Part shown: piece by piece, positions 1 through 7,798 of the stretch
Layout: each line of letters opens with the position of its first letter
How positions within the stretch are numbered: the stretch's first letter is position 1
From: Naegleria gruberi
Lineage: Eukaryota
NCBI GenBank assembly: GCA_000004985.1
Contig: GG739106.1
DNA: 7,798 bases
Reading direction: 5' to 3' (one strand)
Position numbers and translations under genes: made by a program
Notes under the pieces: model-generated
The model's database searches: none
The model's input: the letters and a program-made list of their open reading frames with translations, nothing else
Told to the model about the DNA's origin: nothing

Positions 1-799
1 CATTTGCACNAGCTTTCCAGATGGAACTCACGAACCATGGGTTTTACTGATTGAAAAAGCTGTTGCTTTGGTATTTGGAAGTTATGAAGCACTAGAAAGC
101 AATAACTTTTCGGTTGGGGCTAATTTGTTGACTGGTGGTTTGCCATTAAGAATTAGTTTTTCTTCTAAATTATTGACAGGGACTGACATTTGGAATATTT
201 TATGCTTCTTTTTTAAGATTGACTCCTTGATTGGAATTTCAAACGGTGGCCATTCTCTTGCCTTGATGGATTTGAACACTATCGAGAATAAGAAAGTGCT
301 TTATATCAAAAATCCTTGGGCTAACGATGGAGGGAAAAAGTACAAGAACTTTGGTGTAGGTGAGGATGATGGTATTTTAAAACTCGAATTAGACCAATTA
401 GTATCTGATTTCAAACATATTGATGTAAGCATTCCTATTGATGCTAAGATTTTTAAAGAGTACAGATGCTCAGTTGCAAACAAAGACATGCATACTCTAA
501 CACTAGAACCTTTTATCAGATATTTCATTAGCTCTGAGGTGAATATTCATGGGGATGTGCATGTTTCGATTGATAATGGTATGAAAATGGGTTCAGGATT
601 CTATTACTCTGGTTTTTTCATATTTAACAAGAAAACTACTATTGAATGTAGTTTACCTCTCAGAGCATTTAGAATTATTGAGACAGACGCTATTATCAAC
701 AAGTTGATAGAACCTTCCAAGGAAGTGCAAACGTGCACCATCTCGAATGCATATTTATCGTTTTTTTCAATTAAAAAAAACAACGGTAGTCAGTACTGA
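1..799 (+). CDS. Calpain-family (peptidase C2) cysteine protease, 3' portion. It is 5'-partial and runs off the window start. Codons begin at position 2, and the stop is TGA at 797-799.
   Basis: The frame starting at position 2 translates to ...FPDGTHEPWVLLIEKAVALVFGSYEALESNNFSVGANLLTGG...SNGGHSLALMD...LYIKNPWANDGG...DGILKLELDQLVSDFKHIDVS... This matches the conserved calpain protease-core motifs (E-x-W-x-x-LLEKAYAK-x-x-GSYEAL, LTGG, GHAYSV with the catalytic His, LRNPWG with the catalytic Asn, and DGEFWMSF-x-DF). The His codon is at 251-253 and the Asn codon at 311-313, 20 codons apart (roughly 24 in classical calpains). The catalytic Cys would lie upstream of the window. The frame is open for 265 codons with no internal stop. 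The N at position 10 falls in the third position of ACN, which is Thr whatever the base. Confidence 0.8.
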   Translation, partial: ICXSFPDGTHEPWVLLIEKAVALVFGSYEALESNNFSVGANLLTGGLPLRISFSSKLLTGTDIWNILCFFFKIDSLIGISNGGHSLALMDLNTIENKKVLYIKNPWANDGGKKYKNFGVGEDDGILKLELDQLVSDFKHIDVSIPIDAKIFKEYRCSVANKDMHTLTLEPFIRYFISSEVNIHGDVHVSIDNGMKMGSGFYYSGFFIFNKKTTIECSLPLRAFRIIETDAIINKLIEPSKEVQTCTISNAYLSFFSIKKNNGSQY

Positions 800-945
800 A
801 GCAATCTTATGATGGTTAAATTGGAATTATAAAGTTTTAATATTGTATTATCAACATGATCTAAAGTAGATTACGATGCAGATTTAATGGAAGTGGCAGC
901 TGATATTATAACTCTAATACCTTTATCTTTCTAGATTGAATTCCT

Positions 946-951
946 AATAAA
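946..951 (+). promoter_or_regulatory. AATAAA hexamer, a candidate polyadenylation signal for the calpain-like gene. A second AATAAA lies at 1042-1047.
   Basis: An exact AATAAA sits about 147 nt downstream of the TGA stop at 797-799, in moderately AT-rich non-coding-looking sequence. The hexamer occurs by chance fairly often in AT-rich DNA, so this is a weak call. Confidence 0.3.
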
Positions 952-1099
952 AGTAAATTTTCACACAGTAAACATGAACGTATTGAACTATCCATATTTT
1001 TTAAATCATTCATTGATTTGGTTTCAAATGTTTGAATTTCAAATAAATTTTCCAAATCAAATTCTTTTACTTGACCTTGATTATTACATGAATATAATC

Positions 1100-4000
1100 N
1101 NNNNNNNNNNNNNNNNNNNNNNNNNNNNNNNNNNNNNNNNNNNNNNNNNNNNNNNNNNNNNNNNNNNNNNNNNNNNNNNNNNNNNNNNNNNNNNNNNNNN
1201 NNNNNNNNNNNNNNNNNNNNNNNNNNNNNNNNNNNNNNNNNNNNNNNNNNNNNNNNNNNNNNNNNNNNNNNNNNNNNNNNNNNNNNNNNNNNNNNNNNNN
1301 NNNNNNNNNNNNNNNNNNNNNNNNNNNNNNNNNNNNNNNNNNNNNNNNNNNNNNNNNNNNNNNNNNNNNNNNNNNNNNNNNNNNNNNNNNNNNNNNNNNN
1401 NNNNNNNNNNNNNNNNNNNNNNNNNNNNNNNNNNNNNNNNNNNNNNNNNNNNNNNNNNNNNNNNNNNNNNNNNNNNNNNNNNNNNNNNNNNNNNNNNNNN
1501 NNNNNNNNNNNNNNNNNNNNNNNNNNNNNNNNNNNNNNNNNNNNNNNNNNNNNNNNNNNNNNNNNNNNNNNNNNNNNNNNNNNNNNNNNNNNNNNNNNNN
1601 NNNNNNNNNNNNNNNNNNNNNNNNNNNNNNNNNNNNNNNNNNNNNNNNNNNNNNNNNNNNNNNNNNNNNNNNNNNNNNNNNNNNNNNNNNNNNNNNNNNN
1701 NNNNNNNNNNNNNNNNNNNNNNNNNNNNNNNNNNNNNNNNNNNNNNNNNNNNNNNNNNNNNNNNNNNNNNNNNNNNNNNNNNNNNNNNNNNNNNNNNNNN
1801 NNNNNNNNNNNNNNNNNNNNNNNNNNNNNNNNNNNNNNNNNNNNNNNNNNNNNNNNNNNNNNNNNNNNNNNNNNNNNNNNNNNNNNNNNNNNNNNNNNNN
1901 NNNNNNNNNNNNNNNNNNNNNNNNNNNNNNNNNNNNNNNNNNNNNNNNNNNNNNNNNNNNNNNNNNNNNNNNNNNNNNNNNNNNNNNNNNNNNNNNNNNN
2001 NNNNNNNNNNNNNNNNNNNNNNNNNNNNNNNNNNNNNNNNNNNNNNNNNNNNNNNNNNNNNNNNNNNNNNNNNNNNNNNNNNNNNNNNNNNNNNNNNNNN
2101 NNNNNNNNNNNNNNNNNNNNNNNNNNNNNNNNNNNNNNNNNNNNNNNNNNNNNNNNNNNNNNNNNNNNNNNNNNNNNNNNNNNNNNNNNNNNNNNNNNNN
2201 NNNNNNNNNNNNNNNNNNNNNNNNNNNNNNNNNNNNNNNNNNNNNNNNNNNNNNNNNNNNNNNNNNNNNNNNNNNNNNNNNNNNNNNNNNNNNNNNNNNN
2301 NNNNNNNNNNNNNNNNNNNNNNNNNNNNNNNNNNNNNNNNNNNNNNNNNNNNNNNNNNNNNNNNNNNNNNNNNNNNNNNNNNNNNNNNNNNNNNNNNNNN
2401 NNNNNNNNNNNNNNNNNNNNNNNNNNNNNNNNNNNNNNNNNNNNNNNNNNNNNNNNNNNNNNNNNNNNNNNNNNNNNNNNNNNNNNNNNNNNNNNNNNNN
2501 NNNNNNNNNNNNNNNNNNNNNNNNNNNNNNNNNNNNNNNNNNNNNNNNNNNNNNNNNNNNNNNNNNNNNNNNNNNNNNNNNNNNNNNNNNNNNNNNNNNN
2601 NNNNNNNNNNNNNNNNNNNNNNNNNNNNNNNNNNNNNNNNNNNNNNNNNNNNNNNNNNNNNNNNNNNNNNNNNNNNNNNNNNNNNNNNNNNNNNNNNNNN
2701 NNNNNNNNNNNNNNNNNNNNNNNNNNNNNNNNNNNNNNNNNNNNNNNNNNNNNNNNNNNNNNNNNNNNNNNNNNNNNNNNNNNNNNNNNNNNNNNNNNNN
2801 NNNNNNNNNNNNNNNNNNNNNNNNNNNNNNNNNNNNNNNNNNNNNNNNNNNNNNNNNNNNNNNNNNNNNNNNNNNNNNNNNNNNNNNNNNNNNNNNNNNN
2901 NNNNNNNNNNNNNNNNNNNNNNNNNNNNNNNNNNNNNNNNNNNNNNNNNNNNNNNNNNNNNNNNNNNNNNNNNNNNNNNNNNNNNNNNNNNNNNNNNNNN
3001 NNNNNNNNNNNNNNNNNNNNNNNNNNNNNNNNNNNNNNNNNNNNNNNNNNNNNNNNNNNNNNNNNNNNNNNNNNNNNNNNNNNNNNNNNNNNNNNNNNNN
3101 NNNNNNNNNNNNNNNNNNNNNNNNNNNNNNNNNNNNNNNNNNNNNNNNNNNNNNNNNNNNNNNNNNNNNNNNNNNNNNNNNNNNNNNNNNNNNNNNNNNN
3201 NNNNNNNNNNNNNNNNNNNNNNNNNNNNNNNNNNNNNNNNNNNNNNNNNNNNNNNNNNNNNNNNNNNNNNNNNNNNNNNNNNNNNNNNNNNNNNNNNNNN
3301 NNNNNNNNNNNNNNNNNNNNNNNNNNNNNNNNNNNNNNNNNNNNNNNNNNNNNNNNNNNNNNNNNNNNNNNNNNNNNNNNNNNNNNNNNNNNNNNNNNNN
3401 NNNNNNNNNNNNNNNNNNNNNNNNNNNNNNNNNNNNNNNNNNNNNNNNNNNNNNNNNNNNNNNNNNNNNNNNNNNNNNNNNNNNNNNNNNNNNNNNNNNN
3501 NNNNNNNNNNNNNNNNNNNNNNNNNNNNNNNNNNNNNNNNNNNNNNNNNNNNNNNNNNNNNNNNNNNNNNNNNNNNNNNNNNNNNNNNNNNNNNNNNNNN
3601 NNNNNNNNNNNNNNNNNNNNNNNNNNNNNNNNNNNNNNNNNNNNNNNNNNNNNNNNNNNNNNNNNNNNNNNNNNNNNNNNNNNNNNNNNNNNNNNNNNNN
3701 NNNNNNNNNNNNNNNNNNNNNNNNNNNNNNNNNNNNNNNNNNNNNNNNNNNNNNNNNNNNNNNNNNNNNNNNNNNNNNNNNNNNNNNNNNNNNNNNNNNN
3801 NNNNNNNNNNNNNNNNNNNNNNNNNNNNNNNNNNNNNNNNNNNNNNNNNNNNNNNNNNNNNNNNNNNNNNNNNNNNNNNNNNNNNNNNNNNNNNNNNNNN
3901 NNNNNNNNNNNNNNNNNNNNNNNNNNNNNNNNNNNNNNNNNNNNNNNNNNNNNNNNNNNNNNNNNNNNNNNNNNNNNNNNNNNNNNNNNNNNNNNNNNNN

Positions 4001-6389
4001 NNNNNNNNNNNNNNNNNNNNNNNNNNNNNNNNNNNNNNNNNNNNNNNNNNNNNNNNNNNNNNNNNNNNNNNNNNNNNNNNNNNNNNNNNNNNNNNNNNNN
4101 NNNNNNNNNNNNNNNNNNNNNNNNNNNNNNNNNNNNNNNNNNNNNNNNNNNNNNNNNNNNNNNNNNNNNNNNNNNNNNNNNNNNNNNNNNNNNNNNNNNN
4201 NNNNNNNNNNNNNNNNNNNNNNNNNNNNNNNNNNNNNNNNNNNNNNNNNNNNNNNNNNNNNNNNNNNNNNNNNNNNNNNNNNNNNNNNNNNNNNNNNNNN
4301 NNNNNNNNNNNNNNNNNNNNNNNNNNNNNNNNNNNNNNNNNNNNNNNNNNNNNNNNNNNNNNNNNNNNNNNNNNNNNNNNNNNNNNNNNNNNNNNNNNNN
4401 NNNNNNNNNNNNNNNNNNNNNNNNNNNNNNNNNNNNNNNNNNNNNNNNNNNNNNNNNNNNNNNNNNNNNNNNNNNNNNNNNNNNNNNNNNNNNNNNNNNN
4501 NNNNNNNNNNNNNNNNNNNNNNNNNNNNNNNNNNNNNNNNNNNNNNNNNNNNNNNNNNNNNNNNNNNNNNNNNNNNNNNNNNNNNNNNNNNNNNNNNNNN
4601 NNNNNNNNNNNNNNNNNNNNNNNNNNNNNNNNNNNNNNNNNNNNNNNNNNNNNNNNNNNNNNNNNNNNNNNNNNNNNNNNNNNNNNNNNNNNNNNNNNNN
4701 NNNNNNNNNNNNNNNNNNNNNNNNNNNNNNNNNNNNNNNNNNNNNNNNNNNNNNNNNNNNNNNNNNNNNNNNNNNNNNNNNNNNNNNNNNNNNNNNNNNN
4801 NNNNNNNNNNNNNNNNNNNNNNNNNNNNNNNNNNNNNNNNNNNNNNNNNNNNNNNNNNNNNNNNNNNNNNNNNNNNNNNNNNNNNNNNNNNNNNNNNNNN
4901 NNNNNNNNNNNNNNNNNNNNNNNNNNNNNNNNNNNNNNNNNNNNNNNNNNNNNNNNNNNNNNNNNNNNNNNNNNNNNNNNNNNNNNNNNNNNNNNNNNNN
5001 NNNNNNNNNNNNNNNNNNNNNNNNNNNNNNNNNNNNNNNNNNNNNNNNNNNNNNNNNNNNNNNNNNNNNNNNNNNNNNNNNNNNNNNNNNNNNNNNNNNN
5101 NNNNNNNNNNNNNNNNNNNNNNNNNNNNNNNNNNNNNNNNNNNNNNNNNNNNNNNNNNNNNNNNNNNNNNNNNNNNNNNNNNNNNNNNNNNNNNNNNNNN
5201 NNNNNNNNNNNNNNNNNNNNNNNNNNNNNNNNNNNNNNNNNNNNNNNNNNNNNNNNNNNNNNNNNNNNNNNNNNNNNNNNNNNNNNNNNNNNNNNNNNNN
5301 NNNNNNNNNNNNNNNNNNNNNNNNNNNNNNNNNNNNNNNNNNNNNNNNNNNNNNNNNNNNNNNNNNNNNNNNNNNNNNNNNNNNNNNNNNNNNNNNNNNN
5401 NNNNNNNNNNNNNNNNNNNNNNNNNNNNNNNNNNNNNNNNNNNNNNNNNNNNNNNNNNNNNNNNNNNNNNNNNNNNNNNNNNNNNNNNNNNNNNNNNNNN
5501 NNNNNNNNNNNNNNNNNNNNNNNNNNNNNNNNNNNNNNNNNNNNNNNNNNNNNNNNNNNNNNNNNNNNNNNNNNNNNNNNNNNNNNNNNNNNNNNNNNNN
5601 NNNNNNNNNNNNNNNNNNNNNNNNNNNNNNNNNNNNNNNNNNNNNNNNNNNNNNNNNNNNNNNNNNNNNNNNNNNNNNNNNNNNNNNNNNNNNNNNNNNN
5701 NNNNNNNNNNNNNNNNNNNNNNNNNNNNNNNNNNNNNNNNNNNNNNNNNNNNNNNNNNNNNNNNNNNNNNNNNNNNNNNNNNNNNNNNNNNNNNNNNNNN
5801 NNNNNNNNNNNNNNNNNNNNNNNNNNNNNNNNNNNNNNNNNNNNNNNNNNNNNNNNNNNNNNNNNNNNNNNNNNNNNNNNNNNNNNNNNNNNNNNNNNNN
5901 NNNNNNNNNNNNNNNNNNNNNNNNNNNNNNNNNNNNNNNNNNNNNNNNNNNNNNNNNNNNNNNNNNNNNNNNNNNNNNNNNNNNNNNNNNNNNNNNNNNN
6001 NNNNNNNNNNNNNNNNNNNNNNNNNNNNNNNNNNNNNNNNNNNNNNNNNNNNNNNNNNNNNNNNNNNNNNNNNNNNNNNNNNNNNNNNNNNNNNNNNNNN
6101 NNNNNNNNNNNNNNNNNNNNNNNNNNNNNNNNNNNNNNNNNNNNNNNNNNNNNNNNNNNNNNNNNNNNNNNNNNNNNNNNNNNNNNNNNNNNNNNNNNNN
6201 NNNNNNNNNNNNNNNNNNNNNNNNNNNNNNNNNNNNNNNNNNNNNNNNNNNNNNNNNNNNNNNNNNNNNNNNNNNNNNNNNNNNNNNNNNNNNNNNNNNN
6301 NNNNNNNNNNNNNNNNNNNNNNNNNNNNNNNNNNNNNNNNNNNNNNNNNNNNNNNNNNNNNNNNNNNNNNNNNNNNNNNNNNNNNNNNN
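1100..6389. other. A 5,290-nt run of N, either an assembly gap or masked sequence. No content can be annotated.
   Basis: Every base from 1100 to 6389 is N. Real sequence resumes at 6390. The ORFs that cross this run on the supplied track consist of X residues and are artifacts. Confidence 0.99.
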
Positions 6390-6410
6390 TCATCATTATC
6401 ATTATTATTA
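6390..6410. repeat. Imperfect TCATTA/TTA simple repeat (tca tca tta tca tta tta tta).
   Basis: Read directly: tcatcattatcattattatta. Confidence 0.6.
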
Positions 6411-6456
6411 CATATCATTACTATAATTCTAATACTATACATAAATAATATATTTA

Positions 6457-6494
6457 ATATATAATATAAAATATAAAATATATAAAATATAAAA
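6457..6494. repeat. Tandem TATAAAA heptamer repeat, 4 copies with one TA insertion. It is preceded by an (AT)n stretch.
   Basis: Units at 6465-6471, 6472-6478, 6481-6487 and 6488-6494 are each tataaaa. Related cataaa(a) units follow up to 6515. Confidence 0.7.
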
Positions 6495-6520
6495 CACATA
6501 TATAAACATAAAACATATAG

Positions 6521-7787
6521 AGGTACAGCTAATTGTCCATTATATGATGGTAGATATTTTGTATCTAAAGGAGATGTAATATTAGTAACAGTTAATTATA
6601 GATTAGGTGCATTAGGATATTTAGTATCTATTGAAAATAATATATTAGGTAATTTTGCATTAAAAGATCAAAGATTAGCATTAGAATTTATACAAAAATA
6701 TATAATTAATTTTGGAGGAGATCCTAAAAGAGTGACTATATTTGGAGAATCAGCAGGAGCAGGATCAGTAACATCATTAATAATGAATAAGAAAAGTGAA
6801 GGATTATTTAATCAAGCAATATTTCAATCAAATCCATTATCATTACCATTTAGAGATTTAAAATCATTAAATAATTTAGGTGAAAGATTTATTCAAGATT
6901 CTAAATGTAAAACATTATCATGTTTAAAACAATTAAATTTTAATTTAATTGTAAAATATTCAGATGAATCATCAAATCATTTAAATATATTACATCCAAT
7001 TATATCATTCATGCCATGGACACCTGTTATAGATCATATTGAATTATTTGAACAACCATTAGATGCTTTTAAAAATGGTAATTATTTTAAAATACCAATC
7101 ATGATGGGTACTTGTTCTGAAGAGGCAATTATGTTTATCTATTTGGCTCTATCTTCTCCTTTAAATTCTATTGAATATGATGGTGCATTATTGGGTTTAT
7201 TTGGTCCAATGTCATATTTTAGTGTTCATTCATTATATCCACCTTATGGTTCAGATCAGAGAATTCAATTTTCCATATTAGGTACTGATTATATTTTCAC
7301 TGCTCCAACTAGAAATGCACTCGAAAATATTTATCAACACCAATCAAATATTCCTATATTCTTTTATGAATTTAATCATACTTTATCTTTTAGTGAACAG
7401 GTTTTTAAAGAGAGATATCCATTTTGTATTGGACATGTTTGTCATGGAAGTGAATTACCAATTCTATTTCATTCATCTCAATATGTTAATTTATATTTAA
7501 ATGAACAGGAGGAATTATTATCACATCAAATGATTCAATATTGGACTAATTTTGCTTATAGTGGTAATCCAAATTATAAATCAAAGGATAATTCTAAATC
7601 AAATGATAGTACAAGAAATGATAGTATTGACTTACCATATTGGTCTGCATTTACAACATCAAATGTATTAAATATGGAATTCCAAACACCAAAAACTTCA
7701 ATGGTACAAGGTTTAAGAAAACAAAAATTAGACATGTTTGATAAAATGTGGTTATCATCATGGTTATTAATAAATTATTATGATTAA
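6521..7787 (+). CDS. Type-B carboxylesterase/cholinesterase-family (alpha/beta hydrolase) gene, terminal exon(s). It is 5'-partial, the first full codon is at 6522, and the stop is TAA at 7785-7787.
   Basis: Translation gives ...GTANCPLYDGRYFVSKGDVILVTVNYRLGALGYLVS...GNFALKDQRLALEFIQKYIINFGGDPKRVTIFGESAGAGSVTSLIMN...GLFNQAIFQSN...IMMGTCSEEAIMF...IGHVCHGSELPILF...LLSHQMIQYWTNFAYSGNPN...LPYWSAF...* All the diagnostic COesterase motifs are present: the nucleophile elbow G-E-S-A-G (Ser codon 6750-6752), the acyl-pocket/acid Glu in GTCSEE (7119-7124), and the catalytic His in C-H-G-S-E-L (7443-7445). Relative to the Ser, the Glu is at +124 and the His at +231 residues, against +127 and +240 in Torpedo AChE. 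The conserved second disulfide loop position is occupied by Cys at +52 and +57 (codons 6906-6908 and 6921-6923). The ORF-track start at 6732 is a GTG inside the conserved FGGDPKRVTIFGESAG block, not a real start. Confidence 0.85.
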
Positions 7788-7798
7788 ATACAGCACGT

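Follow-up and report, generated by a model that had tools for sequence, protein, structure and literature searches.

The question raised by contig GG739106.1 of Naegleria gruberi (assembly GCA_000004985.1) is why two genes that lie on the same strand, on either side of a run of Ns, should differ so sharply in base composition and codon usage. The whole stretch of 7,798 nucleotides was analysed and is called the window hereafter; it carries at its left end the 3' part of a calpain-like cysteine protease gene and at its right end the last exon of a type-B carboxylesterase gene. An earlier examination of the letters alone, to which we refer as the sequence-only reading, had noticed the discontinuity and listed as its possible causes a difference in expression level, an isochore or accessory-region boundary, a horizontally or recently acquired esterase, and a scaffolding join between sequences that are not truly adjacent. 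Our analysis establishes that the break in composition is genuine and of considerable size and suggests, with what we judge to be about an even chance of being right, that it results from lineage-specific, regional A+T-biased mutation pressure around the esterase locus, such that an AT-rich domain meets a region of ordinary composition.

A synonymous break between two gene fragments

The open reading frame (ORF) of the calpain-like gene (positions 2-796) has a G+C content (GC) of 34.7%, with 37.2/33.3/33.7% at first, second and third codon positions (GC1/GC2/GC3), versus 25.6% and 34.5/33.3/9.0% in the esterase ORF (6522-7784), and the lower G+C that hand counts had indicated for the esterase coding sequence (CDS) is thereby borne out. 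When degenerate codons only are considered, GC3 stands at 31.9% (82/257) in the calpain ORF and at 5.4% (22/405) in the esterase (Fisher P = 1.4e-19), and the effective number of codons (ENC) is 41.4 and 29.1, respectively. The individual codon preferences previously listed for the two CDSs all reappear in the counts: AAC:AAT is 10:8 in the calpain ORF and 0:33 in the esterase, TAC:TAT is 4:5 and 0:24, AAG makes up 8/21 and 2/21 of the Lys codons and TTA 9/26 and 42/47 of the Leu codons, ATA occurs 2 and 14 times and TCA 4 and 23 times, and CCT exceeds CCA (5:3) in the calpain ORF. The amino-acid make-up of the two genes is alike, the share of Phe, Tyr, Met, Ile, Asn and Lys (FYMINK) being 0.37 and 0.36 and that of Gly, Ala, Arg and Pro (GARP) 0.166 in both, and the difference between these two CDSs, each of them a fragment and separated from the other by 5.29 kb of unsequenced DNA, is purely synonymous and lies at third codon positions.

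Comparison with relatives indicates which of the two sides departs from the norm. Measured over the same esterase exon, GC3 is 0.28 in N. lovaniensis (six single-exon neighbours 0.29-0.38; locus 37% GC), 0.37 on L002, a metagenomic Naegleria contig (other genes there 0.33-0.40), and 0.17 in Willaertia magna (three neighbours 0.12-0.22; genome 24.7% GC); in the window esterase it is 0.09, and about 0.02 across the first 159 codons. The 12 Naegleria-type genes measured span 0.28-0.40. By synonymous-codon likelihood, the calpain ORF prefers the N. lovaniensis codon table over that of W. magna by 42 nats, the esterase prefers the W. magna table by 85 nats, and W. magna's own orthologue does so by only 39. 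Because Naegleria genomes have 33-37% GC, N. gruberi being given as 35% (PMC12482156; PMC9928731), the left contig looks ordinary for the genus and the right one does not, and we infer from the relatives that the esterase contig is the unusual side. A literature search for the GC3 or a codon table of N. gruberi found whole-genome GC values only. In W. magna some 3 kb of DNA with 8-13% GC (L003 12001-15000) lies downstream of the esterase orthologue, close to a contig end.

A less eventful explanation is that GC3 simply varies within the genome and that a weakly expressed esterase happens to occupy the AT-rich end of an ordinary spread, with nothing regional about it. Naegleria and Willaertia have indeed been described as having low GC3 and a wide range of ENC (PMC11702301), and the somewhat lower GC3 of the orthologues in the first ~160 codons of the exon would fit as well. 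However, the GC3 of the window esterase, whether taken over all codons or over degenerate ones, lies under that of every W. magna gene measured at the locus and far under that of the 12 Naegleria-type genes, and the composition of its intron and of its protein has shifted too, for which reasons we consider ordinary spread unlikely, albeit the kind of explanation that deserves to be kept in mind.

The esterase exon is, moreover, heterogeneous in itself. A change point falls at about 7020-7090 (permutation P = 0.006): in families where codons ending in A and in T are both available, the ratio of A- to T-ending codons is 50:17 before position ~7020 and 39:48 after it, and GC3 climbs from 0.036 to 0.126 across the same point. 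Only the N. gruberi copy shows the switch from A to T; a weaker step in GC3 occurs at the same place in the orthologues. A chimeric contig made of two paralogues finds no support, identity to the orthologues being equal in both halves (0.67 vs 0.69), and the change would fit a gradient growing more pronounced in the direction of the gap.

Proposed regional mutation pressure and its competitors

The shift at the esterase locus reaches beyond synonymous sites once the locus is set against appropriate references. What remains of the intron preceding the exon has 10.7% GC, versus 24.7% in the 300 nt of non-coding DNA of the left contig (P = 7e-4), so that coding third positions and adjacent non-coding DNA are shifted together at the esterase: 9.0% and 10.7% there, versus 33.7% and 24.7% on the left. 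GC1 and GC2 of the window esterase are 34.5/33.3%, compared with 43.7/38.8% in N. lovaniensis, and its protein has more FYMINK residues (0.356 vs 0.29-0.32) and fewer GARP residues (0.172 vs 0.19-0.23) than the orthologues. At sites where three other Naegleria sequences agree, the replacements found in the window lose 9 GARP residues and gain 0; the same test applied to L002 as a control lineage gives gains of 9 and losses of 4. Since intron, GC1/GC2 and amino-acid content are shifted towards A+T as well, regional mutation pressure accounts for the contrast better than selection on codons would.

The same observations bear on the proposal of the sequence-only reading that expression level sets the two genes apart, which they leave poorly supported. 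Translational selection, whereby a difference in expression or in life stage would drive codon choice, has been reported for amoebae (PMC11702301), and the ENC of the esterase lies below the mutational expectation for its GC3 (~34-37). A low ENC is nevertheless what A+T pressure is expected to yield by collapsing six-fold families onto TTA, AGA and TCA; furthermore, the orthologues are without the bias, whereas a non-coding intron, first and second codon positions and a protein that has drifted towards AT-rich codons all lean in the same direction, and we regard codon choice driven by translational selection as very improbable here.

The left contig holds the end of a divergent calpain-like gene of ordinary Naegleria composition and the right contig the last exon of a vertically inherited esterase; if regional A+T pressure is indeed at work, the locus of the latter would have drifted, in this lineage and over a region, towards A+T. 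Neutral sites at the esterase locus would sit near 5-10% GC; the drift would strip G and C from third positions, leave the intron extremely AT-rich and nudge amino acids towards those with AT-rich codons, while purifying selection would preserve the reading frame and the catalytic triad. The boundary between the ordinary region and the AT-rich domain, or a gradient from one to the other, would then be hidden in the gap. In Sanger projects, DNA of very high A+T content is difficult to clone and to assemble, and for this reason the locus may have been left as an orphan fragment beside a gap. As to what maintains such a domain, a lack of GC-biased gene conversion (gBGC), methylation-linked decay or some other process may be involved. 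CpG is found at 0.50 of its expected frequency in the left contig and at 0.10 in the right one (0.51 within the calpain ORF and 0.05 within the esterase CDS; GpC ~0.8-1.0), but we dropped this depletion as an independent sign of methylation-driven decay, as it is mostly a by-product of a GC3 near zero and of arginine encoded by AGA only.

Several points weigh against a regional cause, even though the isochore or regional boundary is the best fit among the four causes named in the sequence-only reading. The region in question is documented by only 1.4 kb, that is, one exon and 131 nt of intron; the compositional boundary falls in the gap and is not seen; the linkage of the two contigs rests on the read pairs used by the assembler; and the relatives have no calpain near the esterase. 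Part of the step in GC3 within the exon is weakly present in orthologues too, and the step is, hence, not purely regional. Finally, the baseline is that of relatives, and within N. gruberi itself a GC3 of 0.09 might lie less far out in the tail than they suggest.

Descent of the esterase and linkage of the contigs

Codon usage closer to that of AT-rich genomes than to that of Naegleria would also be expected of foreign DNA, be it a horizontally transferred gene, an integrated giant-virus element or an AT-rich contaminant, and amoeba genomes are known to harbour AT-rich insertions of giant viruses (PMC11702301). The phylogeny of the esterase, which the sequence-only reading had envisaged as the means of recognizing a horizontal or recent acquisition, gives the opposite answer. 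The closest relatives of the window esterase are those of N. fowleri and N. lovaniensis (66-69% identity), followed by L002 (62-65%), W. magna (52-55%) and then other heteroloboseans, orthologues being present in N. fowleri, N. lovaniensis, W. magna and Acrasis. In a neighbour-joining tree it falls, on a branch of unremarkable length, inside a four-member Naegleria clade (99.5% bootstrap) that is sister to Willaertia (99.5%), in agreement with the species tree (relations per PMC12482156). The window, N. lovaniensis and L002 have the spliceosomal intron at the same position, one specific to Naegleria; a scan of IMG/VR returned no viral relative of the esterase, metagenomes returned no close relative, and a second N. 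gruberi orthologue is absent among the homologue-search matches. Taken together, the placement in the clade, the intron and the empty viral scan lead us to discard horizontal, viral or recent acquisition; the esterase is a native heterolobosean orthologue inherited vertically, and the chance that the right contig is foreign seems to us very small.

Whether the two contigs are true neighbours is a separate matter, in which the layout of the window has to be considered. The window is a complete 7,798-bp scaffold of the draft of strain NEG-M, a minimal mate-pair scaffold in a genome sequenced by Sanger (PMC9928731) and represented by 784 scaffolds (supplementary Table S1, PMC11702301). Real sequence is restricted to two contigs of 1,099 and 1,409 bp (1-1099 and 6390-7798), each about one to two reads in size, and the 5,290 Ns between them (1100-6389) amount to 68% of the scaffold; a lone N stands at position 10. 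The irregular length of the N-run suggests that the size of the gap was estimated from paired reads.

A mis-join, in which a chimeric clone or spurious read pairs would have led the N-run to link contigs that are not neighbours, is made conceivable by these proportions, and to this extent the suspicion of a scaffolding join was well placed: the run does represent a scaffold gap of estimated size, flanked by contigs that are both very short, and the order of genes in relatives lends the adjacency no support. Searches of both contigs by tblastn and tblastx against the N. lovaniensis locus retrieved the esterase only, and neither in N. lovaniensis nor on L002 is there a calpain-like sequence less than 10 kb away from it. 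These two instead have in common the order geneX-esterase-Ras (L001 8247-13575 in N. lovaniensis; 197-3870 on L002), and the nearest Naegleria calpain relative is on a 737,947-bp contig of N. lovaniensis, the esterase being on one of 783,699 bp. On the other hand, N. gruberi is too distant from these relatives for synteny to be expected, and because of this distance the relatives neither support nor refute the join of calpain and esterase; a gap of 5.3 kb would, in addition, suit exon 1 plus one or two genes. A mis-join would also leave the AT-richness of the esterase contig itself unexplained and could hence be added to another cause but not replace it. We hold such an error in the scaffold to be rather improbable. 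Two further features of the neighbourhood are that geneX (L001 ~8247-8913) is unannotated in N. lovaniensis, and that of the two only N. lovaniensis has a 2OG-Fe(II) oxygenase gene placed between geneX and the esterase, the N. gruberi orthologue of this oxygenase gene (P0124) being located on a 1.56-Mb scaffold.

Gene models, the gap and implications

The esterase is securely identified and its exon lies at 6521-7787 on the + strand (ORF 6522-7784, TAA at 7785-7787). It matches Pfam PF00135 (COesterase) with 246.7 bits, the gathering cut-off being 27 (E = 7.4e-73), and is 100% identical to the public N. gruberi model P0001, a type-B carboxylesterase/lipase. When it is aligned with the solved carboxylesterase 8axc, its catalytic Ser (FGESAGAGS, with GESAG at 6744-6758), Glu (SEEA) and His (CHGSE) fall on the corresponding residues, in motifs that are invariant or conserved across orthologues. 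Its strong match to the family profile, its GESAG elbow, the aligned Glu and His and its 52-69% identity to heterolobosean orthologues tie it to the type-B carboxylesterases of the Dictyostelium 'crystal protein' and 'cAMP-regulated D2' type, from which it is set apart by codon usage that is far richer in A+T than in any of the orthologues examined. The window holds the C-terminal 75% of the protein, some 155 N-terminal codons falling in the N-run. With 421 open codons, of which the probability by chance at the composition of the esterase is 6e-18, and an intact triad, the gene is maintained.

Upstream of the exon, the 3' part of the spliceosomal intron (6390-6520, + strand) has stops in all frames and lacks any G on the + strand ahead of its acceptor AG. 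The acceptor reads ...ATATAG|A GGT ACA in the window and ...ATTAG|A GGT ACC in L002, and in N. lovaniensis this site is occupied by an intron of 224 nt, exactly before the GTANC motif (L001 10466-10689). Within the exon, positions 7572-7607 contain an 18-nt tandem duplication (AATTATAAATCAAAGGAT / AATTCTAAATCAAATGAT) that encodes NYKSKD/NSKSND and lies inside an Asn/Lys/Ser-rich insertion without counterpart in the orthologues; by analogy, the insertion would be of the type of low-complexity expansion known from AT-rich genomes.

The 3' end of the exon probably carries a frameshift of one base (7744-7770, + strand). The C-termini of the orthologues read ...LDMFDS(I/V)GYHHG(Y/W); the window in frame reads WLSSWLLINYYD before its stop codon, and its +1 frame reads GYHHGY at 7750-7770 with a stop at 7768-7770, the predicted frame-corrected C-terminus being ...LDMFDKMGYHHGY followed by that stop. 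An indel of one base near 7747-7749 is likely to be a read-end error, because the site lies some 50 nt from the end of the scaffold, as is typical of the low-quality ends of reads. The public model P0001 (334 aa; 6783-7787) bears this shifted tail and begins at the internal Met at 6783, downstream of the catalytic Ser, and is a truncated fragment of a protein of ~570 aa.

On the left contig, the calpain-like gene occupies 2-799 on the + strand, in frame 2, with 265 codons (2-796) and a TGA at 797-799. Here again the identity given by the sequence-only reading was right, for this gene as for the esterase: the match to Pfam PF00648 (Peptidase_C2) has 30.1 bits against a cut-off of 23.8 (E = 3e-7), and spans residues 10-82 of the ORF and positions 127-197/297 only of the profile. 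The ORF, which aligns to calpain-1 core structures, runs off the start of the scaffold, with the Cys region upstream of base 1. With respect to the N. fowleri calpain P0131 it shows 27% identity over 186 aa, and alignment to this protein, not structure, places the catalytic His and Asn (GGHS/GHAYS; IKNPWANDGG/LKNPWANDFG). It thus resembles the calpain family in the middle of the catalytic core and in its His and Asn motifs; by contrast, the loop between a conserved helix and the His is shortened, and the last ~120 residues matched no family in Pfam. A word-indexed homologue search of 5.8 billion clustered proteins found neither a self-match nor a close homologue, and the ORF appears to be unannotated; an exhaustive search of 1.84 billion representative proteins gave weak calpain matches only, with a best E of 7e-8. 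On this evidence the sequence is very divergent, and among the most divergent of those with a calpain domain.

At least 5.4 kb separate the calpain stop from the esterase exon, and the gap must, as predicted from orthologues of 560-572 aa to which the window aligns from residue ~156 onwards, hold at least exon 1 of the esterase (~155 codons) and the remainder of the intron; it has room for one or two more genes. The non-coding tail of the left contig (800-1099; 24.7% GC, as given above) includes a minus-strand ORF of 63 codons (906-1097) that remains open right up to the Ns and has its end at a distance of 107 nt from the calpain stop. This ORF has a GC3 of 0.125, its chance of staying open is ~0.007 per frame, and a Pfam scan of it gave no match; a convergent gene with its body inside the gap may have its 3' end here. 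An Rfam scan and a repeat search of the window returned nothing relevant, and scans of metagenomes for closer relatives and for contigs that span the gap were both empty.

Heterogeneity of GC3 within genomes is ascribed to regional mutation bias or to GC-biased gene conversion, and AT-rich isochores occur in some fungi. Vermamoeba vermiformis, with its wide range of GC3, is an example of such heterogeneity (PMC11702301). The window resembles these intragenomic compositional domains in that its genes differ almost only at synonymous sites, its non-coding DNA shifts alike, its protein has drifted slightly and its gene is intact; it differs from them in displaying 1.4 kb of the AT-rich side, with the boundary in the gap. 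In N. fowleri and N. lovaniensis, gene and exon content are distributed homogeneously along the chromosomes (PMC9928731), and the literature that we searched describes no compositional domains in Naegleria. The esterase would add, on a fragmentary scaffold, one more case to a kind of phenomenon that is already known. A bolder and more tentative extension, which we think possible though on the whole doubtful, is that the ~35%-GC genome of N. gruberi holds islands of extreme AT-richness, where neutral sites have a GC of 10% or lower, in which intact and conserved genes of a housekeeping type have been recoded almost wholly to A- and T-ending codons after the lineage parted from that of N. fowleri and N. 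lovaniensis, and which are hidden in Sanger gaps and orphan scaffolds.

These findings have practical consequences, as the public esterase model is truncated, frameshifted and without its catalytic serine, and screens for horizontal transfer or contamination that are based on composition would wrongly flag a native gene. If the contrast is indeed regional, it would be a first indication that strong compositional domains exist in a heterolobosean genome that is elsewhere regarded as uniform, and would flag a class of loci that are poorly represented in the reference assembly of N. gruberi; the domain itself would then reflect low recombination, silencing or another local mutational regime.

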